In this document: positions 31,735 to 48,306 of the stretch, in pieces
Position numbering within the stretch: the stretch's first letter is position 1
How the letters are laid out: every line of letters begins with the position of its first letter
DNA from: an uncultured bacterium
Lineage (GTDB): Bacteria; Patescibacteriota; Minisyncoccia; UBA6257; 2-01-FULL-56-20
Reading direction: 5' to 3'
NCBI GenBank assembly: GCA_963705915.1
Contig: OY970126.1
Location: 623,893 to 687,892 of the forward strand
DNA length: 64,000 nt
The notes under the pieces: model-generated
The model's input: the letters and a program-made list of their open reading frames with translations, nothing else
Databases searched by the model: none
Told to the model about the DNA's origin: nothing
Program-made: the position numbers and the translations under genes

Positions 31735-33837
31735 ATGATCGATGTCAAGAAATTGATCACCGGTTTTCTGATTTTGGCTGCGTCGGCAGGCTTATCTGCG
31801 ATTGTCGTGACAAACATCAACACGCAACCGGCTACCCAAATTTCATCAAGCACGCCGGCGATTGCTATCAGCCAAACTTCAACGGCGCAAAGCAACGTCT
31901 TTATACCCGAATCTCCAATAACCGACTCCGTCACCCCCGTCATTCAAACCGAAGGTACGATTCCTACGTCCTCAGACCCAAATAATCTTACCGACAATCT
32001 TGCAAATTCATTTTTGAATAGTGTTGTAAGCGCGAACCCGAACGGCCCCCAAGAAGATGCGTCGGGGAATCCCGTTTTCGTTCAACCCGATGTAAATTCA
32101 ATCGCAATGGAAGTCGCGGATGCGACCGCGACCCAAGCTCTTCAAATTCCCAACTGGGATACGGAGGTCAACAACGAGCCACTCCACACCATTCAGAATC
32201 CCACCGCCGAAGATATGACGGATTATGAAAATAACGTTAACTATATCCTCGGAGAGTACGTAGTGAAGCCAAATCTACAGCAGACCATCAATAATCCCGC
32301 AGCAAGCGTGGACGATCTTGCTTCCGTAGAAAATAATCTATCGGGAGCGCTCACGGATCTTACCGCGATCAACACCCCGGCATCTCTCGTCCCTCTTCAA
32401 AAAAGCATGATCGCAATGCTTGTTTATGAAAGCAATGAAGTTCAGGTTGCCGAAGGGGCGAGCGGCGATCCGCTGAAAGCATCCCTCATAATCCAAGGGG
32501 AACAAGAAAAATACGATGCTGCAGCCCAGGCTCTGGAATCACAGATTGAACAAGTCTCAGCGGCCAATGCACCAAGCAACAGCATCGCCATGAACGCACC
32601 TCTCGGATTTCTCCAGGGCATGTTCGGCATCCAAACCGCCCATGCCCAATTCGGAGGAACAGTATTCGTTGCGGGCGGTTATATAGCAACCGATGATCCT
32701 GGCCTTTTCGCTCAAGGGGTTGAAAATCTCGTAAACAACATCATTTTGCAAATCCTTAAAAACGTCCTCATTGCCCTCATACAACAACATGTCCTCTCAT
32801 GGATCCAGGGCAGCGGCGCGCCCCGATTCCTTACTGATTGGGCGACAACGCTCACTCAAGCATATACACAAACCGCCCTCAATATATTGAGCAGCCAAAT
32901 GTCGTGCGCGGTCGGGCCGGAATTCATGGCCCAGGTTCGGACGACCCTTAGTGTCTACTATCAAACGCCCGGCACGAGCGGTAATGTTTGTGCGGATATT
33001 TTCCAAGAATCGCTCGGCGGCAATACGCTTGGGCAGTTTTATAATAATTTTTCGAACGGTGGATGGATGGCATACGGCGTAACGGCACTTCCGGCAGGAA
33101 ATTATTACCAAAGTGCTTTCTTCCAAGCGCAGGCAACCGATCTCGCCGCTCAACAAAATCAACAGGCGACGCAAGCACAATCCATCGCCAGCCAGGGGTT
33201 TACCGGAGATTTGGTCTGCGATGACGGAAGCCAGCCGAACGGAACTCACCTCGAATGTATCGACAAAAATAATGTCCCCTACCATCCGAATTCGAATGGA
33301 ACATGCGACCCTGGATATTTTCCCGTCACCGTGGCGAATAATGGAAAATGCGCAGACGGTACAAACCCGCAAACCGTCACCCCGGGAGCGGCCACGGGCT
33401 TTAGTTTGAACTCCGCCCTCAATTCACCTCAACAGTTAATTACAGCCGCAAATAGCATCCAGGGAATCTTAAACGCGATGGTTACATCACTCCTTAATTC
33501 GCTCGTGAGTGCTGCGGTGAACGCAGGAACCAATGGGCTCTTGGGTATCAGCCCAGGAAGCATCCAAGGTGGTGGTACTCCACCTGCTCCGCTCCCGCTC
33601 ACCTGCAATCCCCCGCTCCAATCTGCGTCAACGACATATCCGATTACGATCAGTGCAAGCGGCGGGAAGACGGATTCTCAAGGCAATCAGCCAAGCTACA
33701 GCTGGTCTTCTTCTGACGGTTTCAATACAACTGGCTATGTATTCTCCCACGCTTATAACCTTGCTGGCACCTACACTATAACCTTGAGCGATAATACCGG
33801 CGACACACCCGCAACGTGCCGAGCGACCGTACAATGA
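31735..33837 (+). CDS. Large secreted Q/N/S/T-rich protein with a C-terminal PKD-like domain; first gene of the T4SS-like operon
   Basis: N-terminal TM/signal sequence, long low-complexity region, C-terminal ...YSWSSSDGFNTTGYVFSHAYNLAGTYTITLS... (PKD-like); a 2-nt gap to the next gene. Confidence 0.55.
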   Translation: MIDVKKLITGFLILAASAGLSAIVVTNINTQPATQISSSTPAIAISQTSTAQSNVFIPESPITDSVTPVIQTEGTIPTSSDPNNLTDNLANSFLNSVVSANPNGPQEDASGNPVFVQPDVNSIAMEVADATATQALQIPNWDTEVNNEPLHTIQNPTAEDMTDYENNVNYILGEYVVKPNLQQTINNPAASVDDLASVENNLSGALTDLTAINTPASLVPLQKSMIAMLVYESNEVQVAEGASGDPLKASLIIQGEQEKYDAAAQALESQIEQVSAANAPSNSIAMNAPLGFLQGMFGIQTAHAQFGGTVFVAGGYIATDDPGLFAQGVENLVNNIILQILKNVLIALIQQHVLSWIQGSGAPRFLTDWATTLTQAYTQTALNILSSQMSCAVGPEFMAQVRTTLSVYYQTPGTSGNVCADIFQESLGGNTLGQFYNNFSNGGWMAYGVTALPAGNYYQSAFFQAQATDLAAQQNQQATQAQSIASQGFTGDLVCDDGSQPNGTHLECIDKNNVPYHPNSNGTCDPGYFPVTVANNGKCADGTNPQTVTPGAATGFSLNSALNSPQQLITAANSIQGILNAMVTSLLNSLVSAAVNAGTNGLLGISPGSIQGGGTPPAPLPLTCNPPLQSASTTYPITISASGGKTDSQGNQPSYSWSSSDGFNTTGYVFSHAYNLAGTYTITLSDNTGDTPATCRATVQ

Positions 33838-33838
33838 T

Positions 33839-36202
33839 ATGAAATGGCTATCGCCTAAAAAAATTTTGGGTTTTGCCCTCGCTGGGATGTTCCTTACGGT
33901 GCTTGGATTTACGTTGAGTACTGGCGTTGCACATGCGGCAGGTGGATCGATACCAGACCTTCTGAGTTGCGGCGCAAATGCTTTCACTTGTGCCGTCTAC
34001 GGAATCAGCTTTGTCGTCAATGCTATCCTAGGACTTTTCATCAGCCTTGGAGCTTACATCATCACCTTCGCGCTGAATCTCGATGGCAATGTGTTCAATT
34101 CTCCCACCGTACAAACTGGATTCTCAATCGCGCTTTCGGTAGCAAATCTTGGATTTGTGCTCGGCATAATTGTTATCGCTATCGCAACAATCCTTCGAAG
34201 CGAAGCCTATGGCGTCAAACAAATGCTTTGGAAGCTAGTTGTGATGGCCATCCTTGTGAACTTTGGGCTTGTGATTACAGCTCCCATTGTTGGGTTTGCC
34301 GACAACTTGAGCAACTACTTTGTTAACGCCGAAGGCGGCACAATAAGTTTCGCCACAAATCTCACAAACGCTTTTGCGCCGCAAAATCTTATGCAACCGC
34401 CTCCTGCAGCGACAGGAGGCCAAACGGCTTGCAACGTTGCCGGCGGACTCCTTGGCGGACCTGTCGGAGCTGCCCTCTGCAATACCGCTCGCCAATATTT
34501 AAATGGCGACACCTCTGGCGCAAGCGCGTTTATGGTCCAGGTGCTTTCGCTCATTTTCTCGGCGGTATTTTCGTTTATAGTCATGATCACATTTTTCGCA
34601 ATCGGAATTATGCTTTTTATTAGATACATTTATCTAGCCCTCCTTTTAGTCCTTCTGCCACTCGCATGGCTCACCTGGGTTCTACCTAAACTCAGCCATC
34701 ATTTTGAACGATGGCTGAGCGAGTTTTTCAAATGGACGTTCTTTCCTGTTATTTCGCTGTTCTTCATTTATATTGCCTTCCAGTCGGTGACCAACATAAA
34801 CGGGGCGGTCGGTTTGCAAGCGGCATCAATCGCATCGAGCAACCCAAACGGTCCGCTCGCAAGCATGGCAACACAGACCGGCGGTAACGTGAACCTCATC
34901 CAAACTGCTCTCGATGAATTGCTCATGGCGGGTCTTTGCCTCGGCGGACTCTTTGCAGCAAATGCAATGTCTATTAAAGGAGCGGATACGGCGATGAGTA
35001 TCGTGAAGGGTGCTGGGAAAGGTGTGAAGAATTGGACAACGAGACAGACTAAGAAAGCTGGGCGGGCTACGTATCAAAGATTAGGAGGCAATACGTTGAA
35101 CAAAAAGATGCAGGCTGCCAGAGTGCCTATCATACCAACAATCGGCAGGCAGTTTGCAAGCTGGACCGAGGCTGGAGGAAAAGATCTCGTAGGCAAGCGA
35201 GCAGCCGATCTGAAATTGAGCGGCATGAGCGACGAACGTCTTGTTGAAGTTACGAAGGGCCTCCGAGAGAAGCCTGATCAATTTGCAGCTCTGGCTGAAT
35301 GGCAGAAGCGCAACAAACTTTACAAAGTTGAGCAAATCGGCGGCACTGATCTTAATACATTCCTCGATAAAAACGAGTCATTGGCAAAGAGCGGCTACGA
35401 CCAAGGCAAGCTTATGAGTGATATTAATAAAAACTTTGGCAACGACGCCGACGGAAGAAGGATCAGCAGGGCACGTGCGGCTGAGATGGAAAAAGTTGAC
35501 GTCGTTGATTCACGGGGAATCGTTGCCGCTCCGGGAACAAAAGTTAGCGCCGCCGATCTTGCTGGTGGCGCAAAGGTTGTAATAGAAAATGCAAAAGAGG
35601 CCATAAAAGAATTTGGCCTCGACACCACGGTCAATCATAACGGTAGGATTGTTCGCGCAGACACGCTGATCGAAGACGCGCATAAATCTATCGCCGACGC
35701 TGACGACGCCGCCGACAAGGTTGAAGTGAAAGACGAAAAGGGACTGCTTGGTCCCGCTGGGAAAATGCAAAGAGCCGGAGAGCTGCTTCAGGCCGCATCA
35801 GATAAATTTGTTAAAGGATTGGATAAGGGAGATTTTGCAAAAACTCACCCAGACTATCTTTTTGAAGGAGAAGGAAAATTCGGTTTGGATGAAAATACTG
35901 TACGCGGCTTGGGACGAGCATTCGCTCAATCCATCGTTTCAACCAATCCTTTGCTTATCAGCTCGGCCGTTGGAAAGCTTGACAAAGAGGATGAAATAAA
36001 ATCATTTATGCGTGAGATTACAAAGGCCATCGATAATGCTGTAGCTACCAATCACTTAACTAAGAAGGATGCCAATAGACTACAAAACCAATATCTTGGT
36101 AGAAGTATCGAGAAGAGGATTTCCAATATCGCAACCGGCGGAGGTGGAGGTGGCGCAGCTCCCGCAGCTCCATCCGGTGGCGGAGGTGGTGGTGGACATT
36201 AA
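33839..36202 (+). CDS. Polytopic inner-membrane protein, VirB6/TrbL-like T4SS channel-component candidate, with a long cytoplasmic tail
   Basis: Signal sequence, at least six TM helices in the first 330 aa, then a charged domain ending in Gly runs; operon context with PrgI and VirB4. Confidence 0.5.
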   Translation: MKWLSPKKILGFALAGMFLTVLGFTLSTGVAHAAGGSIPDLLSCGANAFTCAVYGISFVVNAILGLFISLGAYIITFALNLDGNVFNSPTVQTGFSIALSVANLGFVLGIIVIAIATILRSEAYGVKQMLWKLVVMAILVNFGLVITAPIVGFADNLSNYFVNAEGGTISFATNLTNAFAPQNLMQPPPAATGGQTACNVAGGLLGGPVGAALCNTARQYLNGDTSGASAFMVQVLSLIFSAVFSFIVMITFFAIGIMLFIRYIYLALLLVLLPLAWLTWVLPKLSHHFERWLSEFFKWTFFPVISLFFIYIAFQSVTNINGAVGLQAASIASSNPNGPLASMATQTGGNVNLIQTALDELLMAGLCLGGLFAANAMSIKGADTAMSIVKGAGKGVKNWTTRQTKKAGRATYQRLGGNTLNKKMQAARVPIIPTIGRQFASWTEAGGKDLVGKRAADLKLSGMSDERLVEVTKGLREKPDQFAALAEWQKRNKLYKVEQIGGTDLNTFLDKNESLAKSGYDQGKLMSDINKNFGNDADGRRISRARAAEMEKVDVVDSRGIVAAPGTKVSAADLAGGAKVVIENAKEAIKEFGLDTTVNHNGRIVRADTLIEDAHKSIADADDAADKVEVKDEKGLLGPAGKMQRAGELLQAASDKFVKGLDKGDFAKTHPDYLFEGEGKFGLDENTVRGLGRAFAQSIVSTNPLLISSAVGKLDKEDEIKSFMREITKAIDNAVATNHLTKKDANRLQNQYLGRSIEKRISNIATGGGGGGAAPAAPSGGGGGGGH

Positions 36203-36211
36203 TAAATATAC

Positions 36212-37279
36212 ATGCTCACTCTTTCAGATCAACAAGTTTTCAGTCGTTGGCCTTCCTTAAGCCCGGCACTTCGAGAAGCGCTCTTTTCGCAACCGAACGC
36301 TGATTTCGTTTGGAATTTATGCACCGACGAACACCTACCCGAAGAAAAACGATATGACGTGGCAGAAATTTCCGGATATGTGCTTATGGGCTTTCTCCAC
36401 CCAGAAGATCTGGCGGGGGAACTGGCTGCAACACTTGCTCTTGATCCAAAAATAACAAAAACTATCGCCGACGAAATCAACAAAAGAATTTTTGTCCCGC
36501 TCCGAGCCGATATCGATAAGGTTTACGAACCCGTGAGCAAACTCGCGCCATCCCCGATGCCGATCCGGGACATTAGCTCCGGCCAGGCACAAGCTATGAC
36601 ACCCAAACCTGTCCCGCTCTCGCCTGCGCCCTCAGCGCCGTCTTCCTTCACGAAAATTCCGCCGGCTTCCGAAGGAAAATTCGCGCCGATGAGCGGCGCG
36701 CCGTGGCCCACAAAGCCTGCGCCTGAACCATCAAAGATTGCACCCGGGAACTGGACCACGCAAAAGTCCGCGGTTGTAACACCTGCTGCATCATCATCGG
36801 ATCCGGCCCCGATCATGCTTCATGAAGATGCTAAATTTTCTGCAAGCGATAAAAATACCGACTTCCATCTTTCGCGGCCGGGAGGAGGCGCAGAAGTTTC
36901 GCTTGAAGGCGTGAAGCCAGAAAAAGCAGTGAAACCTGCGGTGCTCGAGCTCGGGACGCTCACAAACACTCCTGCCGCACAAAATGTAGGACCGAAGTTC
37001 ACACACTACACACAGTTCTCGTCGTCTCCCACGCCGAACTCGGAAGCGTCAGCGGTGTCGGCAAACACAGCCCCGAGAAACGTCACGGAGGTTACGGGCG
37101 CGCCGAATGTTACAGCGGCCCCCGTCGTGAGACCGGAGTCGACGCCGATCAAACCGATGTCGTCATCGAAACCGCCCGTCGCTCAAACGCCAATCCCGCA
37201 ACCGCCAAAACCGCCAGCACCAAAGCCAGTCCAAGCGCCACGGCCCGGGCAACCGCCGATTCAGAAAAATTATCCATAA
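36212..37279 (+). CDS. Proline-rich hypothetical protein of the T4SS-like operon
   Basis: The C-terminal half is a P/A/S/T-rich linker; no TM segment. Confidence 0.45.
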   Translation: MLTLSDQQVFSRWPSLSPALREALFSQPNADFVWNLCTDEHLPEEKRYDVAEISGYVLMGFLHPEDLAGELAATLALDPKITKTIADEINKRIFVPLRADIDKVYEPVSKLAPSPMPIRDISSGQAQAMTPKPVPLSPAPSAPSSFTKIPPASEGKFAPMSGAPWPTKPAPEPSKIAPGNWTTQKSAVVTPAASSSDPAPIMLHEDAKFSASDKNTDFHLSRPGGGAEVSLEGVKPEKAVKPAVLELGTLTNTPAAQNVGPKFTHYTQFSSSPTPNSEASAVSANTAPRNVTEVTGAPNVTAAPVVRPESTPIKPMSSSKPPVAQTPIPQPPKPPAPKPVQAPRPGQPPIQKNYP

Positions 37280-37296
37280 TATAATAGAGCAAACCA

Positions 37297-37854
37297 ATGC
37301 AGTTCCAAGTTCCACAATTTATCGAGACTGAAGACAAAGTGGTGGGCCCGTTCTCGATCCGCCAGTTTGCCTATGTTGGCATTGCCTGCTTCATAAGTGC
37401 CATCGCATATTTTATGCTTGCGACATGGCTATTCTTTCTTGTCGCAATCATTTTTATCGGCGGTGCGCTCGCCATATCGTTTGTAAAGGTTGAGGGCCGC
37501 CCCCTCATTAATATTCTTATTTCCGCAGCCAATTTTTATTGGAAACCGCAAACCTACGTCTGGCAACCGGAGCAGACAGCAATTGCCGCGCCCGGCAAGA
37601 TCAAAAGTGAAGCAAAATCGGGCGGTTTTTCGCTTGAAGATATCCTCGCAAACGCTCTCCGGAAAAAATCGGTTGATACGGCAAAAGTTGCCGATGGCAA
37701 CGCTCTCCATAAAAGCTGGCAAAATGTGCAAACGGGGGAGACCCAAAAAACCTCTGACCGGCAATTCATCGAACGCAAGATGAATGAGCGCTATCAGATT
37801 TTCCAGAAGCTTGCGGGCGACCGGGACGCTGCGCGGCGGGTGGACTATCGATAG
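37297..37854 (+). CDS. PrgI-family protein (VirB3-like component of Gram-positive-type T4SS)
   Basis: MQFQVPQFIETEDKVVGPFSIRQFAYVGIACFISAIAYFML... matches the PrgI N-terminal pattern with two TM helices. Confidence 0.6.
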   Translation: MQFQVPQFIETEDKVVGPFSIRQFAYVGIACFISAIAYFMLATWLFFLVAIIFIGGALAISFVKVEGRPLINILISAANFYWKPQTYVWQPEQTAIAAPGKIKSEAKSGGFSLEDILANALRKKSVDTAKVADGNALHKSWQNVQTGETQKTSDRQFIERKMNERYQIFQKLAGDRDAARRVDYR

Positions 37855-37872
37855 TTGGATTATCGATACTAA

Positions 37873-38592
37873 TTGTGGGAAAATAATACCATGGCGCTTC
37901 CTGCAAAGCAGGATCTGGGCAATTCGCTCGATCTTGTAGACATAAAAGAGATTCGCGACAACGTCGCCATTCTCAAAGACAATAGCTTACGACAAGTCGT
38001 TATGGTCGGTGGGGTGAATTTTGCGTTGAAATCGGACACCGAGCAGAACATCATCACGCAAGGCTATCAGACATTTTTAAACACCGTCGAATTTCCGCTT
38101 CAGATTCTCATCCATTCGCGCAAAGTAAACATCGACAAATATATAGAGAGCCTTTTGCGCCGGAAAGAAGTGGAAACATCGCCGATCCTCCAGAACCAAA
38201 TTGACGAATACACCGAGTTCGTAAAAGGGTTCGTGTCTAAAAATGCGATTATGGAAAAAACATTTCTCATTGTCGTGCCTTTTTTCCCGTTGGGCGCGGC
38301 GATGTCGGGGGCGAAAAAGGGATTGATGGATAGCATTCCGTTTTTGGGTAACAGGAAAAAGCCCGACGCCGCGGCAACGGCAAAATCAAAAGAAGAAGCC
38401 GACCACTCATTTAATGAAAATGTTGGCCAGCTCACCCAGCGCACAAGCCAGATTGTGAACGGCATTTTGGGCGTAGGCCTCGAAGCCACCGTGCTCGGCA
38501 ACCAGGAACTCATCGAGCTTTTCTATAATTTTTATAACCCGCAAACCGTTGAGCGGGGGACGAACCTTGGAGCGGGGACTGATACCGCATGA
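37873..38592 (+). CDS. VirB4/TrbE-family protein, N-terminal domain, encoded as a separate ORF
   Basis: ...QVVMVGGVNFALKSDTEQNIITQGYQTFLNTVEFPLQILIHSRKVN... resembles the VirB4 N-terminal domain; in the same frame as the downstream ATPase ORF, separated by TGA and TAA stops. Confidence 0.55.
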   Translation: MWENNTMALPAKQDLGNSLDLVDIKEIRDNVAILKDNSLRQVVMVGGVNFALKSDTEQNIITQGYQTFLNTVEFPLQILIHSRKVNIDKYIESLLRRKEVETSPILQNQIDEYTEFVKGFVSKNAIMEKTFLIVVPFFPLGAAMSGAKKGLMDSIPFLGNRKKPDAAATAKSKEEADHSFNENVGQLTQRTSQIVNGILGVGLEATVLGNQELIELFYNFYNPQTVERGTNLGAGTDTA

Positions 38593-38616
38593 TTTCATTA
38601 ACCTTTCATTAAAACG

Positions 38617-40353
38617 ATGCCCGACCAAACCCCACAAAACTTCAAAGATATCAAAAAGATCATCGCACCGGCAGGCGTGCAGATCTCGCCGAATTTTTTG
38701 AAGATCGGCGACAAGCTCGCAAAAACGTTTTTTGTTTTTTCATATCCCCGCTACCTCGCGACGGGTTGGTTCGAACCGCTCATCAACCTGCCGAATCTTT
38801 TTGATATTTCCATTTATGTGAACCCGATAGACACGGGCGTCGCGCTCAAAAACCTCCGCAAGAAAGCCGGCCAGCTCGAATCCCAAATAGCCGACGAACA
38901 GGAAAAGGGGCTCGTGCGAAATCCCGTGCTTGAAACCGCCGTGCAAGACGTTGAAAATCTCCGCGACTCACTCCAGCAGTCGGAAGAAAAACTTTTCGAT
39001 ACCGGCGTATACATTACGATCTACGGCGACAACGAAGACGACCTCGCAAAGCTTGAAAGTAAACTCGTGAGCATGATGGAGGCGAAGCTCATCTATCTCA
39101 AACCCGCGCTCTTCAATCAGCTCGAAGGGCTATTCACCGTGCTCCCGCTCGATGCCGATAAATTGCAGGTGTATACGCCAATGAACACGGGCCCGATTTC
39201 ATCCTTCTTCCCGTTTGTTTCGGAAGATCTCTCTTCTAATGAGGGAATCATGTACGGTATTAATTTGCACAATAATAATCTTGTGATCTTCGATCGATTC
39301 TCGCTTGAGAATGCAAACCAAGTCGTCTTTGCAAAATCCGGCTCGGGAAAGTCATATACAACAAAGCTCGAAATCATCCGATCTCTCATGGCGGGTGTCG
39401 ACATGGTGCTCGTGATCGATCCGGAAAACGAATACGACCGGCTTGCAAAAACCTTTGGCGGCAGCATGTTCAATATCTCGCTCTCGGGGCACGAACACAT
39501 CAATCCGTTCGATTTGCCGCTCGTGCCGGAAGGGGAAACACCGTCGGATGTTTTGCGGTCGCACATCGTGACGCTCGCAAGTTTGCTCAAGCTCATGCTC
39601 GGCAAGATCACGCCGGAAGAAGACGCCTTGCTTGATCGCGCAATCACCGAGACCTATGCGTCGCGGGATATCGTGGCCGGCACAGACTTCGCCGGAAAAG
39701 AACCGCCGCTTTTGGGCGACCTCGAAACGGTCCTCCGCGATATAGAAGGAGGAAAAGATTTGGCCGAAAAGCTCTATAAATACACCAAGGGCAGCTTTGC
39801 GGGGTTCTTGAACCAGCCAACAAACATCGATATCAGTAACCGGCTCATCGTGTTTTCAATCCGCGACCTCGAAGAAGAATTGCGCCCGGTCGGCATGTTC
39901 GTTGTTTTGAATTTCATCTGGTCGCTCATCCGCGCGAAGCTCGCGAAGCGATTGCTCTTCATCGATGAAGCCTGGATCATGATGAAAAACGAAGACAGCG
40001 CGACGTTCCTCTTCGGCCTCGTGAAACGCGCGCGCAAATATTATCTCGGCGTATCGACGATCACCCAAGACGTTGAAGATTTCTTGCGATCGCCCTATGG
40101 CCGCCCAATCATCACAAACTCGTCGATCCAATTACTTTTGAAACAGGCGCCGGCAACAATTGATATCGTGGCAAAGGCATTCGATCTCACGGAAGCCGAG
40201 AAAAGTTTTCTCCTGGGCGCGGAAGTCGGCACCGGTATCTTCTTTGCTGGCAAACGACACGTTGCAATTCAAATCGTGCCGTCATACTTTGAAGATCAGA
40301 TCATCACAACGAATCCCGAACAGCTTCTCGAGGAGAAAGATCAGGTTTTGTAG
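38617..40353 (+). CDS. VirB4/TrbE/PrgJ-family T4SS ATPase (C-terminal ATPase portion)
   Basis: Walker A FAKSGSGKSYTT, Walker B LLFIDEAWIMM, VirB4 C-terminal motifs ...GVSTITQDVEDF..., ...GIFFAGKRHVAIQIV... Confidence 0.85.
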   Translation: MPDQTPQNFKDIKKIIAPAGVQISPNFLKIGDKLAKTFFVFSYPRYLATGWFEPLINLPNLFDISIYVNPIDTGVALKNLRKKAGQLESQIADEQEKGLVRNPVLETAVQDVENLRDSLQQSEEKLFDTGVYITIYGDNEDDLAKLESKLVSMMEAKLIYLKPALFNQLEGLFTVLPLDADKLQVYTPMNTGPISSFFPFVSEDLSSNEGIMYGINLHNNNLVIFDRFSLENANQVVFAKSGSGKSYTTKLEIIRSLMAGVDMVLVIDPENEYDRLAKTFGGSMFNISLSGHEHINPFDLPLVPEGETPSDVLRSHIVTLASLLKLMLGKITPEEDALLDRAITETYASRDIVAGTDFAGKEPPLLGDLETVLRDIEGGKDLAEKLYKYTKGSFAGFLNQPTNIDISNRLIVFSIRDLEEELRPVGMFVVLNFIWSLIRAKLAKRLLFIDEAWIMMKNEDSATFLFGLVKRARKYYLGVSTITQDVEDFLRSPYGRPIITNSSIQLLLKQAPATIDIVAKAFDLTEAEKSFLLGAEVGTGIFFAGKRHVAIQIVPSYFEDQIITTNPEQLLEEKDQVL

Positions 40354-40362
40354 CGCACTACG

Positions 40363-41235
40363 ATGAATGCGAAACGATTCAGCACTGCAGAAGAAGTAGT
40401 CGCCGCACTTCTCGTCCTTTCAGAAGTTGCGGTGAAAGCCATCGCCGACCTTTCTCTTGGCATACCCGTCATCGGAGAAATCGGCTTTGCCGGTGCAGAA
40501 CTTTACACCGTTGCGATCTACGCCGTCTTTATTCTTTGGTTCGTCTTTAAGCTTGGCGGCTTTGGAACCGTCGGCATGTATCTCACCGTTGGCGGCCTTG
40601 CCGACGCGATAGGCATCCCTGTTGGCCTTGCCTTCGCTGTTGGCGCAGGCATGTATTTGACGAACCATCCAAAAGTAAAAGCTGTGGCCGGGGTTGTTGG
40701 AGGATTTGAAGGGGGCGCGGAAGCGGGGGCAGCCGAAGCTGGCGAAGCCGCGGAGGGTGTGACTGAGGTAGAAGAGGCCGCAACGGCGGCGGAGGGAACA
40801 GCGCAAGGAGCTGAGGCAGCCCAAGGCGCCGAAGGGGTTGAGGCTGGAACGGAAACTGGAAAAGCCGGCGCAGGTACGTCCGCCGAAGAAGCCGGGGCAC
40901 AGGAAGCTGGAGCTGAAACCAATGAGTCCGAGAAGACCGAAGGCGAGCGTAAAGCCGAAGAGGAGCTCACGCCGGAAGCCGAGAAAAACCCGATGGACAT
41001 TGAGCAGAAAAATCTTTTTCAAGAAACACCGGAATCTGAGTTTGAAGGCAAGGAGAGCGGCACTGAGGCAGGCGACGAGAACGGTTCCGCCCAAGACAAG
41101 CCGCTTAACAAAGAGCAAAAGTTCGGGCAGAAGGTGCAAGACATCACTTCCGGACGCGGTCAGAACCTTAAAGATTATCAAGCAGACGAAGACAAGGAAG
41201 ATTTCGGCGACGAAGAATCCGAGAAGGCCGCGTAG
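40363..41235 (+). CDS. Membrane protein with an acidic low-complexity C-terminal tail (T4SS operon)
   Basis: Three to four TM helices, then a Gly/Ala/Glu-rich tail. Confidence 0.5.
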   Translation: MNAKRFSTAEEVVAALLVLSEVAVKAIADLSLGIPVIGEIGFAGAELYTVAIYAVFILWFVFKLGGFGTVGMYLTVGGLADAIGIPVGLAFAVGAGMYLTNHPKVKAVAGVVGGFEGGAEAGAAEAGEAAEGVTEVEEAATAAEGTAQGAEAAQGAEGVEAGTETGKAGAGTSAEEAGAQEAGAETNESEKTEGERKAEEELTPEAEKNPMDIEQKNLFQETPESEFEGKESGTEAGDENGSAQDKPLNKEQKFGQKVQDITSGRGQNLKDYQADEDKEDFGDEESEKAA

Positions 41236-41268: not shown

Positions 41269-41958
41269 ATGGCGAACCGAACCGCAAAGACCGCACTCGG
41301 CATAATGGCCGTGCTTTTCATACTTGGCATCGCCCGGGCCAATGCTGCAGGTCCTCAATTTTTGATCACGTGGAAAACCACGGGAAGTTATATTCCGTCG
41401 AATTACGCCGGGAAAATGTTGCCGACCTATGGATCGGAGATAACCGCATCGCTTGAGATATTTTCCGGCGGCTCTTCGGTCAACTTGGCGAACCAAACCA
41501 TCTATTGGTATTTAAACGACACGCTTCTCGGCGGTGGCGTGGGTGCTCGAACGATTACATTCCCGCCCTTTGGCCAAGCGCCAAACGATATGACACTCAA
41601 AGTTGAGTTGCCAAGTTACGACGGACAATTTCTCATCCATACCATCACCATCCCGATGGCTCAGCCACAGGTTGTAATCGTTGCACCCTATCCCGGCGGA
41701 GCTTTTTCATTAAACCCAGTCACCGTGACGGCTGTGCCTTATTTTTTCAACACAGCGTCACAGGATAATCTTTCGTATTCGTGGACGGTAAACGGCCAAA
41801 CAAGTGCAAACGAAGAGGATCCTGAAGAAGCACAGATTACGCTCCCGGGAGGAACGGCAGCCGGAACGTCGTTCGGTGTTGACGTGACGGTACAAAATCC
41901 GAGCGATTCAACGCAGGCGACGGCGTCAGAAAATCTCACCTACCAGCCACCACTTTAA
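41269..41958 (+). CDS. Secreted hypothetical protein (signal peptide) of the T4SS operon
   Basis: N-terminal signal sequence MANRTAKTALGIMAVLFILGIARANA. Confidence 0.5.
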   Translation: MANRTAKTALGIMAVLFILGIARANAAGPQFLITWKTTGSYIPSNYAGKMLPTYGSEITASLEIFSGGSSVNLANQTIYWYLNDTLLGGGVGARTITFPPFGQAPNDMTLKVELPSYDGQFLIHTITIPMAQPQVVIVAPYPGGAFSLNPVTVTAVPYFFNTASQDNLSYSWTVNGQTSANEEDPEEAQITLPGGTAAGTSFGVDVTVQNPSDSTQATASENLTYQPPL

Positions 41959-41974
41959 CTATGTTCCATTTCTC

Positions 41975-42451
41975 ATGAGCAAATCCATTGTAAAAAAAGT
42001 TGCTTTTATCTTTATTGCGAGCCTCGCTCTCTCGTTTGTTTCTGTGACGCACGCGGTGAACATTTCGCTTTCGTTTCCCGGCGTAAATTATTCAACGAGC
42101 ACGCCGCCCGGAACGATTGTAAATGGCTTCTATCAGTTTGCGCTCCTTATCGGAGGAATCCTTGCGTTCGGCGCCATCGTCTATGGAGGCGTGAGATATA
42201 TGACCTCGGCAGGTAATCCTTCGGGGCAGCACGAAGCGAAGGAGTGGATTCTGAGTGCACTCATCGGCATCATACTTCTCGTCGGCGCGTACCTCATCTT
42301 GAATACTGTGAATCCAAATCTAACGCACCTCGATCTGCCAACACTCCAGCCCGTAAATATTAGTAACAACGGTTATACCGGCAACGGGGGCTCGAATGGG
42401 CAAGGTACGAGCGGATCGGGCTCAAATGGCGGCGGTGGCAGCGCCTTCTAA
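41975..42451 (+). CDS. T4SS pilin-like protein (TrbC/VirB2-family candidate)
   Basis: Signal peptide plus two hydrophobic helices with a G/A-rich pattern (...GFYQFALLIGGILAFGAIVYGGVRYMTSAG...AKEWILSALIGIILLVGAYLIL...), then a Gly/Ser-rich tail. Confidence 0.45.
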   Translation: MSKSIVKKVAFIFIASLALSFVSVTHAVNISLSFPGVNYSTSTPPGTIVNGFYQFALLIGGILAFGAIVYGGVRYMTSAGNPSGQHEAKEWILSALIGIILLVGAYLILNTVNPNLTHLDLPTLQPVNISNNGYTGNGGSNGQGTSGSGSNGGGGSAF

Positions 42452-42455
42452 ATCT

Positions 42456-43784
42456 ATGAAACGCTATATAACCATAATTGCCGTAGTGATCATTGTAGCC
42501 GTCCTTGTGGTGGTCGGCCTCTATATTTGGAAGCAATACGGATCGTCGGGAGCGTCGGGCACCACCTCGAGCGGAACCGCCGGCACGTTGCCGAACGCTG
42601 GAACGCAAGGAACGAGTGGCAGCAGCACAAGCGGGACAACGGGAACAACCGGCGCGACTGGCGGCAACACGGGTTCAAGCTCGAGTGGCAGTACCGGCCT
42701 TGTTGCGGGCACCTTCGGGCCGCTCTCAAATGATCCTGTCCTCAATTATTTTGTGGAGCCGAATAATACCGTGCTTGCCCTTGAGCCGAATGGCGTTGTT
42801 GCACAGATCTCCGCAGGCCAAACTTCTTACCTCAGTTCGTCAACGGCGAGTAACGTGATCAGGGGCTCATTCTCGCTTGACGGTAAATTGGCGCTCATAA
42901 ACTTTGGTGCCGCGGGCACCGCGCCACAAACGAGTATCTTTGCTGTCGCTTCTTCAAAATGGACGGCGCTTCCGCAGGGCATGCAATCGCCCGTCTGGTC
43001 GCCGGTGCCTGGCGACGAACGCATTGCGTACCTTGCAAACGCAGCGACGGGGACGGAAACGCTCGCGACGATCAACGCGGCGAATCCAAAGGCTGGCCCG
43101 GTTGGTCTGCTTACCCTCCACGCGAACGATCTCACCGTGCAGTGGATCGGCAAAACACAGTTTATCCTCTCGAGTAAGCCGAGCGACTACGCCCCTGGTT
43201 CGATGTTCCTGTTCAATAGCGCGGCACAAGCCCTCACACTGCTCGACATCGACCTGCCAGGGCTCGAAAGCGTCTGGAGCGGTCCCTTTGGCACAAGCTC
43301 ACCCGAAGGACTCGTATTCTCCACTAATATTGGCTCGACGGGCGGCAATCTGCAATTTCAAGACTTGAGCGGAAATATTCTTGAGAATGTGGCCTTGGGA
43401 ACATTGCCGACGAAATGCACCTTCGGCACGGGAACGTCAATCGTAACAGCTTCGCCTTCGAACGGCACGTCGACCGCAAGTACGTCGACCGTCGGCGCAC
43501 CAGGCACAACGACAACCACGAGCTATCTTGCCCTCTACTGCGGCGTCCCGCGCGACCAAAACGCATTTTCGTCAGCATACTTACCCGACGATTACAACCA
43601 AATGGCGCTCTTCACCTCCGACGATATTTATCAAATCAACGCCGAGAACGGATCAGTGAATGTCCTTTGGGATGATGCGAGTCAAAACATGGACGTGAGC
43701 AATCTCACGGTTGTGAGCAGCTCGATCTTCTTCGTCAATCGTTACGATCAGAAATTATACACGCTCTCAATCAGCGCAAACTAA
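42456..43784 (+). CDS. Membrane-anchored protein with an S/T/G-rich linker and a beta-propeller-like extracytoplasmic domain (last gene of the T4SS operon)
   Basis: Start set at MKRYITIIAVVIIVAV (TM helix); the C-terminal region has TolB/PD40-like repeats (...SPVWSPVPGDERIAYL...). Confidence 0.5.
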   Translation: MKRYITIIAVVIIVAVLVVVGLYIWKQYGSSGASGTTSSGTAGTLPNAGTQGTSGSSTSGTTGTTGATGGNTGSSSSGSTGLVAGTFGPLSNDPVLNYFVEPNNTVLALEPNGVVAQISAGQTSYLSSSTASNVIRGSFSLDGKLALINFGAAGTAPQTSIFAVASSKWTALPQGMQSPVWSPVPGDERIAYLANAATGTETLATINAANPKAGPVGLLTLHANDLTVQWIGKTQFILSSKPSDYAPGSMFLFNSAAQALTLLDIDLPGLESVWSGPFGTSSPEGLVFSTNIGSTGGNLQFQDLSGNILENVALGTLPTKCTFGTGTSIVTASPSNGTSTASTSTVGAPGTTTTTSYLALYCGVPRDQNAFSSAYLPDDYNQMALFTSDDIYQINAENGSVNVLWDDASQNMDVSNLTVVSSSIFFVNRYDQKLYTLSISAN

Positions 43785-43810: not shown

Positions 43811-44269
43811 TTAGCTGTCGGGATTGGTTTTTGTTTCTTCTCCAATCGGCTTGATGATCACGTATCGTTCTTTTCCGTTGCCGGCGCTTTCGGTGCGGAC
43901 CTCGGGATGGATCGCAAGTTCAACGTGCACGAGCCGGCGCTCATAGGAGTTCATCGCGGGCAATGAGACTTCTGCTTTTGTTGCGAGCGCTTTTTTAGCG
44001 GCGGCGCGGGCGAGTTCGGCGATCAAATTTTCGCGCTCCTGGCGATAATTGTTCACGTCGAGGAAAATGGTTTCGGCGGAATTCTTTTTTGCAACCATTT
44101 GGATGAGATGATTGATGCTCTCGACAATCGCAGGAAGGTTGTCTCGGATAAGATTTTGATCTTCATAAATGAAAAGTGCCGCATGCTTTTCGGCAGGCTT
44201 CACCTCGAGGCGATAGTCTTTAAAACCGAGGAGGTCGAATGTTTTTTTAATAAAAATCTCCCAATCCAT
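43811..44269 (-). CDS. jag: Jag/KhpB-like RNA-binding protein (R3H domain)
   Basis: R3H motif ...LPAMNSYERRLVHVEL...; conserved position next to yidC. Confidence 0.75.
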   Translation of the reverse strand: MDWEIFIKKTFDLLGFKDYRLEVKPAEKHAALFIYEDQNLIRDNLPAIVESINHLIQMVAKKNSAETIFLDVNNYRQERENLIAELARAAAKKALATKAEVSLPAMNSYERRLVHVELAIHPEVRTESAGNGKERYVIIKPIGEETKTNPDS

Positions 44270-44362
44270 AATGGAGCTACTATTTCATATTTTGTTAATA
44301 AAATCAAATGCCGCCGCGAGCCGTCGCTGCGGCGAAATGGCTAAGGCGATCTCCTGAAGGAT

Positions 44363-45070
44363 CTAATTTCCGTACTTCTCCCGCAAGTGTCGATTCACAA
44401 AGAATTGCTGGATCGCCGAGAAGAGCGATGAAAAGAGCCAATAGAGCGCCACGGCCGAAGGCAGACTGTAGAAGATGACGAGGGTCATGATAGGACCGAT
44501 GAAGGCCATCTGGCGTGCGATCTTCTCTACCGGAGAGAGCTGGTGCCCTTCGGGTTGCTTGTAGATCGCAAGCCTCGCCTGAAGATATTGTGAAAGCGCC
44601 GCAAGGACAAGCAGGGTAAAGCTCGGCACGGCGAGATTTACGAAACCGAGGAACATCGTATTGATAACTGCCGGCGCCGGGACAAACGAATAAAGGCCGG
44701 CGATCTGTCCGGTGCCGAGACCAGAACGCACTGCCCAGTAGAGCGCGATTAACACCGGTAACTGGATGAGTAATAAAAGAAAACTGGAGAATGGATTGAT
44801 GCCGTGTTCTTTATAAAGCGCCATGAGCGCTTCGGATTGCTTTTGCATATCCTTTTTATGCGTCTCCTGGATTTTTTTTACCTGCGGCTGAATCCGCTGC
44901 ATGAGCATCTGCTGCTTTGCGCCTTTGTGAAAAAACGGATAGAGGATTAGGCGGAGCAATAAGGTGACGAGAATGATCGCAAGCCCCAGATTATGAAAAG
45001 CGATCGTGTCATAAAAATAAATGAGAACGTTCAGAATCGGCTGATAAAAAATAATTTGCCACCAACTCAT
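44363..45070 (-). CDS. yidC: Membrane protein insertase YidC (short Oxa1-like form)
   Basis: Five TM helices, ...ILYPFF..., conserved position in the rpmH-rnpA-yidC-jag cluster. Confidence 0.85.
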   Translation of the reverse strand: MSWWQIIFYQPILNVLIYFYDTIAFHNLGLAIILVTLLLRLILYPFFHKGAKQQMLMQRIQPQVKKIQETHKKDMQKQSEALMALYKEHGINPFSSFLLLLIQLPVLIALYWAVRSGLGTGQIAGLYSFVPAPAVINTMFLGFVNLAVPSFTLLVLAALSQYLQARLAIYKQPEGHQLSPVEKIARQMAFIGPIMTLVIFYSLPSAVALYWLFSSLFSAIQQFFVNRHLREKYGN

Positions 45071-45091
45071 AAAAATAAAATGTTGTGGGTG

Positions 45092-45403
45092 TTATGCCGT
45101 TTGATGAATCGCGCGGACGAGCGCTTCGCGAAACTGCGACTTCGTAAGTTCGTTGACGCGTGATTGCATGATCAGGATAGCATCGCGGTTGCCTTGCACG
45201 GAACTTTCGAGTGTGGCTCGCGCTTGTCGTTTCCAAAAATTTCTTGTGACGGCGGCTTTGTGTACGCTTTTCCCAACCACAATACCAACCCGCGGGCCCT
45301 TAGTTTCGTTCGATTTCATTTTTAATGAAAAAAATGGTGTGCGTGTGAGCCGATATCCATACGCCCGGAACTCCGCGCGGGGCAGGCGCTTCACACGAGA
45401 CAT
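45092..45403 (-). CDS. rnpA: Ribonuclease P protein component
   Basis: Basic 103-aa protein with ...VGIVVGKSVHKAAVTRNFWKRQ... and its position between rpmH and yidC. Confidence 0.85.
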   Translation of the reverse strand: MSRVKRLPRAEFRAYGYRLTRTPFFSLKMKSNETKGPRVGIVVGKSVHKAAVTRNFWKRQARATLESSVQGNRDAILIMQSRVNELTKSQFREALVRAIHQTA

Positions 45404-45406
45404 ACG

Positions 45407-45541
45407 CTAGACCGTAAGCTTCTTCCGGCCCTTCGCACGACGCCGGGAAAGGACCTGACGGCCGGTGGCCGTGCGCTGTCTTTTCAAAAATCCATGCGTG
45501 CGACGCCGCTTTTTCTTCTTTGGGTTGTACGTAAACGACAT
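45407..45541 (-). CDS. rpmH: 50S ribosomal protein L34
   Basis: [44 protein letters not shown]; the longer track ORF is a spurious upstream extension. Confidence 0.9.
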
Positions 45542-45706
45542 GCCTATGATTGTATCATAAATTTTTCGAAAATCAACCCTCGACAAACTCCACGACTCGG
45601 CTCTAGAATACCTTATGCACATGAAATCCCCAAAACGTATCCCTGCGGCACTTTGACAAAGAACGTTCGTCTGATAAATAATTAACCCAACGTAAACTAT
45701 TTCACC
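45542..45706. promoter_or_regulatory. rpmH-dnaA intergenic region with one DnaA-box-like site (TTATGCACA at 45613-45621); dnaA promoter region, possible oriC part
   Basis: Conserved origin-proximal gene order; 8/9 match to TTATCCACA. Confidence 0.45.
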
Positions 45707-47056
45707 ATGGATCTTGATCAAATTTGGCAATCGACGCTTGGTGAGATGGAAGTTCAAATTTCCAAAGCCCATTATGTTGCTTGGGTGAAAGATAGTCGCC
45801 TTATCGATCGCAAAGATGGCACGCTCTATGTGGCTGTTGCGAATAGTTTCACGAAAGAATGGATCGAGGGGAAGTACCAGAAGAATTTATTGGGCATTTT
45901 GCGCAATATGGACAGCTCCGTGAAGAAAATTGAGTTCGTGGTGGGCCCCAAGGCAGCTGCTATCGCTCGGCAAACCCCTCAAGCACAACTCGCGAAAGCC
46001 GAAATTATGGACTTGGACTTCAAAACCGATCCGGAAACCGGCCTTAACCCAAAATATACGATGGCATCGTTCGTTGTCGGACCATCGAATGAACTCGCAT
46101 TCGCCGCAGCGTCGGCTATTGTCGAAGAAATTGGGAGAAAATACAATCCGTTCTTCGTGTATGGCGGCGTTGGCCTCGGCAAGACTCATCTCATCCAAGC
46201 TGTCGGCAATGAAATCGCGCGAAAATATCAGGGTCGTGTGAAACCGAAGTATGTTCCCTCGGAACAATACACTCGCGACATTGTTTGGGGCATTCGAAAC
46301 GATCGGATTGAGAGCATTAAGAAAAAATATCGCGACGTCGACGTTCTTATCATCGATGATATTCAATTTATCGGCGGGAAGGACAAAACAGAGGAAGAAT
46401 TTTTCCATACGTTCAATGCCCTCTACGAAAATAACAAGCAAATCATCATTTCTTCCGATCGACCACCACAATCGATCCCAACACTCGAAGAACGCCTCCG
46501 CTCCCGGTTTGAGGGGGGCTTGATTGCAGACATCGCCTACCCCGAATTTGAGACCAGGGTGGCCATCATAAAGGCAAAGTTACAGGACATGAATCGGCAA
46601 CTTTCCGACCCTGTCGTTGATATGATCGCGAAAAAACTGAGAAAGAATATTCGCGAGCTTGAGGGCGTTTTGAAGAAGATTTTGTTCTACGAAGAGCGGA
46701 AGCAGGCCGAAGTGACCGAAGACATCGCCGCCGACATCATCGATAAAGCCACGCAAAACCTTGCCAAGCGCGTGAGTGACGTTCAAATCCTCAAAGCGGT
46801 CGCCGAGTTCTTCAATCTGTCCGTTGAAGACCTCATGAGTCACAACCGGCGCAAAGAAGTTGTCGAGCCGCGACAGATTGCGATCTATCTTCTTCGGGAT
46901 ATCTCCGAACTTTCATACCCATATATTGGTGAAAAGTTGGGGAGAGATCACACCACTGCAATACATTCTTACGAAAAGATCAATCAAGAGATTAGTAGAA
47001 ATCAACAGCTTAACCAGAAGGTGTTAATGATTAAAGACTTAATTTTTAAGAGTTAA
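45707..47056 (+). CDS. dnaA: Chromosomal replication initiator DnaA
   Basis: AAA+ Walker [11 protein letters not shown], ...IIDDIQF..., C-terminal DNA-binding domain ...[15 protein letters not shown]... Confidence 0.95.
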
Positions 47057-47193
47057 TCCACAACTTCTACGGAAAAAAATCAGATCTGAATCCCGCGCTT
47101 ATTACAAAAATTATTTTTATCCCCACAACGCAGCCCGTAATAGTCTTAATAAAAATAATTTTCTTATATACATAATTAATTATAATTACTAAT
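47054..47193. promoter_or_regulatory. Candidate oriC element in the dnaA-dnaN spacer: DnaA-box-like TAATCCACA (47054-47062) and TTATCCCCACA (47117-47127) followed by an AT-rich unwinding-element-like tract (47140-47193)
   Basis: Near-consensus boxes read from the sequence plus about 50 nt at over 85% AT immediately upstream of dnaN. Confidence 0.5.
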
Positions 47194-48306
47194 ATGAAGT
47201 TTATTGCTATTCGATCGAACATTAAAGAAGCGATTTCTATAATTGAAAAAGCGACCGGAGAAAATCAAAATCTTCCCATTTTAAAAAATATCCTTATCGA
47301 AACCGATAAAGACGGAATTATTTTCCACACCACAAACCTTGAAATCGCTATTAGTTATAAAGTTGCCGGTAAAGTTATTGAACACGGGAAGATAACCATT
47401 CCCCTCGGACTCCTTTCGAGCCTTATCGGCACGATTTCAACCGACCGGCTGAATTTCGAGAAAAAAGGGAGTGACGTACAGGTCGCAACGGACAACTACA
47501 ACGCCACGATCCACGGGTTGGCCGCCGATGATTTCCCGATAACGCCGAAAATTAAGGACGGCGAAGGGTACATCGAAATCAAGGGCGCGTTTTTAAGGGA
47601 AGCGATCCAGCAAGTGACGGCCGCTTCGCAATATTCGGACCTCCGGCCGGAATTAAACAGCGTTTTATTCAATTTTTCACTTGAAAAACTGACGCTTGCC
47701 TCAACCGACGGTTTCCGGCTTGCGGAAAAATCCCTGCCGGCGAACCTTTTCACCGCAAAAAGCCTCGAACCATTCAAAATGCTGGTGCCGCTCCGGACGT
47801 CGCTCGAATTAGCCCGCATTTTGCGCGACGACGAGATGGTCCGCATGACGATGGATGAGAATCAGGTGCTTTTCAAAACCGAGAAGGCTGAGCTGATCTC
47901 GCGCCTTACTGAAGGCTCATTTCCGGACTATGCGGCCATTGTTCCGCATGAATTCCAGGCGGAGGTTGCCGTCGATCGCGAGGAATTCGCGAACGCCGTG
48001 AAGCTCTCCAGCATCTTCGGCCAGAAAAACAGCGAAGTAAAGATAAAAATCCACCAAAACAAGAAGGCGATCGAAATGAGTTCGGCCGACCAGGCGCTCG
48101 GCGAGAACGTTTCAACACTCGCCGCGAAGGTCAAAGGCGACCTCGCCGAAGTATATTTCAACTGGCGCTACCTTGCGGATCCCTTGAAAGCGATTAAAAC
48201 CGACGATATTTTCATTGGATTACAGGAAGAAGCCGGTCCGGCGCTCATCCGCTCCACGAGCGATACCTCGTACTACTACGTTTTGAAACCGATTTTGAAA
48301 TCGTAA
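47194..48306 (+). CDS. dnaN: DNA polymerase III beta sliding clamp
   Basis: 370 aa in three-domain arrangement, immediately after dnaA. Confidence 0.9.
   Translation: MKFIAIRSNIKEAISIIEKATGENQNLPILKNILIETDKDGIIFHTTNLEIAISYKVAGKVIEHGKITIPLGLLSSLIGTISTDRLNFEKKGSDVQVATDNYNATIHGLAADDFPITPKIKDGEGYIEIKGAFLREAIQQVTAASQYSDLRPELNSVLFNFSLEKLTLASTDGFRLAEKSLPANLFTAKSLEPFKMLVPLRTSLELARILRDDEMVRMTMDENQVLFKTEKAELISRLTEGSFPDYAAIVPHEFQAEVAVDREEFANAVKLSSIFGQKNSEVKIKIHQNKKAIEMSSADQALGENVSTLAAKVKGDLAEVYFNWRYLADPLKAIKTDDIFIGLQEEAGPALIRSTSDTSYYYVLKPILKS

Follow-up and report, generated by a model that had tools for sequence, protein, structure and literature searches.

The window, i.e. the whole 64,000-nucleotide stretch of DNA analysed here, contains a cluster of genes for a putative T4SS, the coordinates of which are collected in Table 1. 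Two neighbouring members, designated ORF-N and ORF-C, together would correspond to a single VirB4 protein. The PrgI gene lies directly 5' of ORF-N, a position which it also occupies in four relatives (L001, L003, L004 and L005), and in these the order PrgI, ORF-N, ORF-C, ..., pilin is identical. ORF-C is set in a T4SS cluster, in which the PrgI and T4SS_pilin matches exceed their Pfam cut-offs and the TrbL_4 match is weak. In the long contigs examined the flanks are kept as well: a PKD-domain protein, a VirB6-like protein, a protein of no assigned family, PrgI, ORF-N, ORF-C, two further proteins of no assigned family, the pilin, another protein of no assigned family and then jag-yidC on the other strand. 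The jag-yidC-rnpA-rpmH and dnaA-dnaN genes start 27 nt 3' of the cluster.

Table 1. Features of the putative T4SS cluster (positions are those of the window)
Feature	Position	Strand	Description
PKD-domain protein	31735-33837	+	Pfam PKD_4
VirB6/TrbL-like protein	33839-36202	+	Weak TrbL_4 match (E 3.9e-04, below cut-off)
Protein of no assigned family	36212-37279	+	355 aa; upstream cluster gene, order kept in L001, L003 and L005
PrgI-family gene	37297-37854	+	VirB3-like membrane protein; Pfam PF12666 PrgI (E 3.6e-09, 37.5 bits, cut-off 27)
ORF-N	37891-38592	+	Predicted TrsD-like stand-alone N-terminal VirB4 domain, 233 aa; TGA stop at 38590-38592
Intergenic spacer	38593-38616	+	24 nt; in-frame TAA at 38599-38601
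ORF-C	38617-40353	+	Predicted VirB4 ATPase subunit, 578 aa; rest of the N-terminal domain plus P-loop C-terminal domain
Protein of no assigned family	40363-41235	+	Downstream cluster gene
Protein of no assigned family	41269-41958	+	Downstream cluster gene
T4SS pilin	41975-42451	+	Pfam PF18895 T4SS_pilin (E 1.6e-12)
ORF of no assigned family	42396-43784	+	462 aa; downstream cluster gene

ORF-N and ORF-C share a reading frame, the distance from the TTG at 37873 to the ATG at 38617 being 744 nt or 248 codons. A first-pass annotation of this DNA had described an N-terminal ORF closed by a TGA, a TAA six nt further on in the same frame, and an ATPase part which restarts in frame at the ATG that opens ORF-C; direct reading of the sequence confirmed all three. 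The length of 239 aa which it gave for the N-terminal ORF is obtained only if translation is counted from the upstream TTG. In the family alignment the homologues open with 'MA....QD.GNSLDLVDIKEI', which corresponds to the ATG at 37891, and a product of 233 aa is most likely. The spacer contains a 9-mer direct repeat (TTTCATTAA) with copies at 38593-38601 and 38604-38612.

TGA is an ordinary stop codon in this genome, since it terminates five of the 35 confident genes in the window, and since the housekeeping genes dnaA, dnaN, uvrD and yidC are uninterrupted under table 11. The same observations rule out a code-4 or code-25 reassignment of TGA; the earlier statement that UGA serves as a stop elsewhere in the organism, and the dismissal of code-25 recoding that went with it, were both correct. 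No Shine-Dalgarno motif was found in the spacer ahead of ORF-C, and because only two of the 35 window genes have one this says nothing about initiation.

By its profile matches ORF-C is a VirB4-family T4SS ATPase. It scores 391.7 bits (cut-off 325) against NCBIfam NF045971, described as 'VirB4-like conjugal transfer ATPase, CD1110 family', and spans positions 182-734 of the 752 in this model; the polypeptide has no counterpart of the N-terminal ~180. The Pfam matches are to P-loop_TraG, AAA_10 and DUF87, with TraC_F_IV falling below its cut-off, and residues 220-564 match the VirB4 C-terminal domain of PDB 4AG5 (E 1.3e-40). The translation contains a Walker A ('KSGSGKS') and a Walker B ('LLFIDEAW') motif.

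The affiliation of ORF-N is more distant. A precomputed match to PF26593 ('TraC-like') exists for P0001, a protein identical to ORF-N, and for all of its best 120 homologues, while our own hmmscan against a local Pfam copy gave no match at E ≤ 0.01. At E ≤ 1 the same local copy returned TraC_F_IV alone (E 0.15), a profile matched by 44 of the 81 members of the ORF-N family (best E 6.8e-06). The NCBIfam matches are all weak and all lie in the N-terminal parts of the models: positions 23-141 of 201 in TrsD/TraD (NF041427; E 3.2e-07), 19-180 of 792 in VirB4_CagE, 12-114 of 752 in the CD1110 model and 103-219 of 894 in the mycoplasma ICE VirB4 model. Comparison of a profile built from the 81-sequence ORF-N family with pSK41 TrsD using hhalign gave a probability of 85% (E 6e-06, 167 columns), which is moderate support. 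Because ORF-N scores 30.4 bits against NF041427, for which the curated cut-off is 200 bits, these matches place it as a remote homologue of TrsD that lies outside this narrow NCBIfam subfamily. The first-pass annotation had recognized neither the TrsD-like nature of this gene (Pfam PF26593, 'TraC-like') nor the fact that the arrangement had been published (PMC12102498).

A sequence-profile search of the PDB with the ORF-N family returned no match even at E ≤ 10. The AlphaFold2 model of ORF-N (pLDDT 86, with tail residues 225-233 below 50) was compared to the PDB using Foldseek, and the best 14 matches are all to TrwK/VirB4 chains of R388; these are weak (E about 8e-3, TM 0.34-0.44). Within the PDB, ORF-N is linked to TrwK/VirB4 by fold comparison alone.

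ORF-N aligns with positions ~12-180 of full-length VirB4 models, and ORF-C takes over at position 182. In the TraC_F_IV alignment, likewise, residues 179-220 of ORF-N correspond to profile positions 134-175 and residues 80-178 of ORF-C to positions 275-373. Because ORF-N matches the N-terminal parts of the models and ORF-C the remainder, the two are complementary and colinear on full-length VirB4, and are not to be taken for paralogous copies of each other. In a protein alignment of the junction in split and fused relatives, conserved blocks ('...FYNFYNPQTVER' and '...FKDIKKIIAPAG...') flank a variable stretch; the split genomes place the stop and the start between '...ELFYNFYNPQTVER' and 'FKDIKKIIAPAG...', and most of the listed junctions have a conserved ATG with 'MP..' opening ORF-C. 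P0272 and P0273, which are fused, have 12-13 residues in the variable stretch ('EKLNLPGEVSPTS'). The first-pass annotation had proposed an alignment against intact VirB4 homologues as a check for residues missing at the junction. No conserved block is missing there in the alignment of split and fused relatives.

The predicted structures locate the break in a variable, disordered or flexible linker, because pLDDT is below 50 both at residues 225-233 of ORF-N and at the junction residues 215-225 in the model of the fused protein P0272. The latter model is of moderate quality (pLDDT 68.8, pTM 0.54). It aligns with full-length TrwK/VirB4 over about 800 columns (E 2e-27, TM 0.58), and on this modelled evidence ORF-N and ORF-C together make up a complete VirB4 fold.

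The best 120 matches to ORF-N (62-82% identity) are, every one, stand-alone proteins of 222-257 aa. Among representatives of clusters at 50% identity, 1,844 match ORF-N at E ≤ 0.001; 101 of the best 150 of these are 200-270 aa long and two exceed 600 aa. The other comparison which had been suggested at the outset, that of orthologous loci in related genomes, was made with 80 loci from different GTDB species (representatives, related Paceibacteria), relatives being sought with a 16-sequence alignment and both parts placed by tblastn. Both parts were found in 79 loci, and in 78 of these they are split and adjacent; the exception, L073, is fused. Amino acid identity to the relatives is 47-79% for the N part and 68-96% for the C part, and none of the split loci has a disrupted ORF.

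The geometry of the junction is not conserved among the 78 split loci. The two genes are separated by a median of 7.5 nt, within a range of -8 to 163 nt (over 30 nt in 15 loci), and no spacer sequence is common to the relatives, the lengths varying too. The second gene is in frame 0 relative to the first in 17 loci, in +1 in 33 and in +2 in 28. The stop codons, counted over all 79 loci, are TAA (56), TGA (12) and TAG (11). Since the relatives use all three frames, the shared frame and double stop in the window are a coincidence without function. The weight which the first-pass annotation had placed upon these two features was therefore misleading.

When the fused L073 protein was used as a query, many full-length proteins of ~780-800 aa (~60% identity) were retrieved, some of which carry the source names Colwellbacteria, Harrisonbacteria or Parcubacteria. 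By score they interleave with C-only proteins of 571-588 aa (~80% identity). Judged from these matches, sister lineages commonly have fused forms, and both architectures, split and fused, are frequent. With its ORFs in the same frame and separated by a short spacer, the window is in a state in which loss of stop codons alone would yield a fusion.

Neighbour joining on the N domain, without support values and with pSK41 TrsD as the root, gave a tree which has fused forms at no fewer than three positions amid deep stand-alone diversity. The fused proteins P0272 and P0273 adjoin the clade of the window; there is one large fused clade of the Colwellbacteria/Harrisonbacteria type, with the stand-alone protein P0128 inside it; and fused P0249, which has a Pro/Ala-rich linker of ~100 aa, is far off. 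Because fused forms occupy at least three positions, the tree suggests repeated fusion, or fission, at the linker, in either direction. A more specific proposal is that the linker acts as an evolutionary toggle in the Paceibacteria, with an ancestral split, a detachable N-subunit and at least three independent re-fusions (P0272/P0273, the Colwellbacteria/Harrisonbacteria-type clade, and P0249). We offer this tentatively and consider it rather doubtful.

We consider it highly probable that the locus encodes a normal VirB4, made as two polypeptides and belonging to a chromosomal T4SS of monoderm type (MPF-FATA-like) in the Paceibacteria (Patescibacteria/CPR). The TrsD-like ORF-N would correspond to the initial ~200 residues of full-length VirB4, and ORF-C would contribute what remains of the N-terminal domain together with the P-loop ATPase domain. 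From the conserved split, the colinearity and the VirB4-like fold of the natural fusions we infer that both chains join, with no covalent bond between them, to form a VirB4-like protomer. The structure from R388 has the N-terminal domain of VirB4 wrapped by VirB3 (PMC9259494); by analogy, PrgI, the VirB3-like product of the gene directly 5', probably wraps around a surface given by ORF-N. The tight spacing of the two genes probably favours co-translation and matched amounts of both chains.

The first-pass annotation had left it undecided whether VirB4 is genuinely made as two polypeptides, was recently interrupted by a nonsense mutation or only looks divided through a sequencing artefact; the split is shared by 78 of 79 related species, which decides in favour of the first. 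That a recent nonsense mutation broke a single virB4, leaving a pseudogene or a gene on its way to becoming one, might be supposed from two ORFs in one frame only 24 nt apart and from the existence of fused relatives of ~790 aa. However, both ORFs are intact in all 78 split species, the two genes are out of frame in most relatives, and ORF-C has a conserved start of its own ('MP..'), which makes this explanation hardly credible. For a sequencing or assembly artefact nothing specific can be cited; the window is part of an 827-kb contig derived from a metagenome. An artefact would require an error at each of the two stops. A 233-aa protein identical to ORF-N is on record both at NCBI/ENA and in Logan assemblies made from public runs, and the same architecture occurs in dozens of independent assemblies; we accord an artefact next to no probability. 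The hundreds of stand-alone homologues of 222-257 aa, together with the conserved split, refute both options.

Two other explanations were considered. Programmed stop-codon readthrough or recoding might yield a fused VirB4 besides the two separate proteins, given that the ORFs are in one frame in this genome and that UGA is the leakiest of the stop codons. It is made very improbable by the TAA two codons after the TGA, by the genes being out of frame in 61 of 78 relatives, and by spacers which are unconserved and contain no element that recurs in relatives. The comparison of related loci argues against readthrough as it does against mutation and artefact. Alternatively, ORF-C could work by itself as a 'short' VirB4, and ORF-N would then be an accessory paralogue with a role of its own instead of the N-terminal piece which ORF-C lacks. 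TrsD is without an assigned function, and ~600 of the 2,272 homologues reported for Patescibacteria lie away from virB4, notably in Gracilibacteria (PMC12102498); some stand-alone N proteins, moreover, bear long low-complexity tails. But ORF-C, when matched to a VirB4 model of 752 positions, begins at 182, without the segment which ORF-N supplies, and the natural fusions are exactly colinear and are predicted to fold as full-length VirB4, and we regard an accessory role as improbable.

The closest precedent for a two-polypeptide VirB4 is found in the Patescibacteria themselves. Quinonero-Coronel et al. (2025, Microb Genom, PMC12102498) described pairs of TrsD-like and VirB4 proteins from the same phylum and in the same type of chromosomal cluster (PrgI/VirB3, TrsD-like, VirB4, VirB6-like, VirB2-like pilin). 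As in the window, the TrsD homologue lies directly 5' of virB4 and dnaA is close by, T4SS clusters in this phylum being often near dnaA. TrsD is the commonest T4SS component in Patescibacteria, 1,664 of its homologues being associated with VirB4, and in Ca. Southlakia epibionticum ML1 the homologue is given among the essential genes (PMC12102498). There is no essential difference between these pairs and ours, and the window is one more instance. What is added here is the position of the break, which coincides with that of pSK41 on the VirB4 model, the randomness of frames and spacers, and the occurrence of fused forms in at least three places of an unsupported tree.

The staphylococcal plasmids pSK41 and pGO1 (TrsD/TraD and TrsE/TraE) resemble the window in having a ~227-aa protein encoded directly 5' of a VirB4 which is without the first ~180 model positions. 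The start of pSK41 TrsE falls at position 183 of the CD1110 model, versus 182 for ORF-C. The pSK41 TrsD protein (227 aa) is only remotely related to ORF-N (22% identity), and TrsE is longer than ORF-C (672 versus 578 aa). Furthermore, the pSK41 genes are on a conjugative plasmid that also encodes a relaxase and a coupling protein, whereas the locus in the window is chromosomal and lies near the origin. By comparison with full-length VirB4 (TrwK of R388, PDB 7O42/8RTD; the CD1110 family; TIGR00929), ORF-N and ORF-C span the whole protein in the same order, but as two polypeptides rather than one chain and with an identity to TrwK of ~14%. The gene order PrgI, ORF-N, ORF-C is also colinear with VirB3-VirB4 fusions, e.g. 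those of the CagE type, which represent the opposite direction, fusion and not fission. Such proteins indicate that the boundaries between VirB3, the VirB4 N-part and the VirB4 ATPase are evolutionarily labile. VirB3-VirB4 fusions were not found in Patescibacteria (PMC12102498).

A two-gene VirB4 is, then, a normal, conserved and already published arrangement in Patescibacteria/CPR, and current understanding is unchanged by this locus. For annotation it has a practical consequence, in that such a locus may be flagged as a broken virB4, by an automated pipeline or by a human reader, and a pseudogene label would be wrong. In the single patescibacterial strain tested, the T4SS is reported to be indispensable for epibiotic growth (PMC12102498). 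A two-chain motor for which natural fused variants can serve as controls is useful in the planning of structural and biochemical work. Should the linker prove to be an evolutionary toggle, a detachable N-subunit would permit regulated or exchangeable docking of the ATPase on the VirB3/VirB6 membrane platform.

The two parts of the split VirB4 differ in their conservation. Among the loci of related species (L006-L085), identity to the window proteins is 68-96% for the ATPase part (ORF-C) versus 47-79% for the TrsD-like N-terminal part (ORF-N), which is thus much the less conserved of the two in the same genomes. With the starts of the C genes as placed here, 15 of 78 relatives (L019, L023, L032, L040, L052 and L058 among them) have more than 30 nt between the two genes, N and C, with a maximum of 163 nt.

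Some stand-alone TrsD-like proteins of relatives end in a C-terminal tail of ~200 aa with a high content of Pro, Gln, Ala and Thr. In P0249, a fused VirB4 of 898 aa, the N and C parts are joined at this point by a Pro/Ala-rich linker of ~100 aa. The proteins concerned (P0182, P0224, P0234 and P0249) are from relatives and lie outside the window. The N/C junction therefore tolerates long disordered insertions. In the window the 24-nt spacer between ORF-N and ORF-C contains a direct 9-mer repeat, TTTCATTAA (38593-38612; spacing 11 nt), which has the appearance of a small tandem duplication. The relatives do not share this repeat, and it is probably without function.

A GGAG, GAGG or AGGA motif was found 4-22 nt before the start in only two of the 35 confident genes of the whole window. 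The rarity of this motif, together with the A/T-rich gene leaders, suggests that initiation in this genome is largely independent of Shine-Dalgarno pairing.

Features at the end of the T4SS cluster and in the adjoining region
Feature	Location	Strand	Remarks
T4SS pilin	41975-42451		
ORF downstream of pilin	42396-43784		462 aa, without family
jag	43811-44269	minus	R3H
yidC	44363-45070		follows jag
rnpA	45092-45403		follows yidC
rpmH	within 45407-45772		follows rnpA
dnaA	45707-47056	plus	follows rpmH
dnaN	47194-48306		follows dnaA

As listed, the pilin ORF and the next ORF overlap by 56 nt, and the real start of the latter is probably further inside. A single pilin gene is seen in the cluster, whereas arrays of 2-11 have been described for other classes (PMC12102498).

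Only 27 nt separate the end of the cluster from jag. With jag-yidC-rnpA-rpmH and then dnaA-dnaN beside it (43811-48306), it thus lies next to the likely origin of replication, and in this it resembles the clusters of some Patescibacteria, for which the same placement has been reported (PMC12102498).
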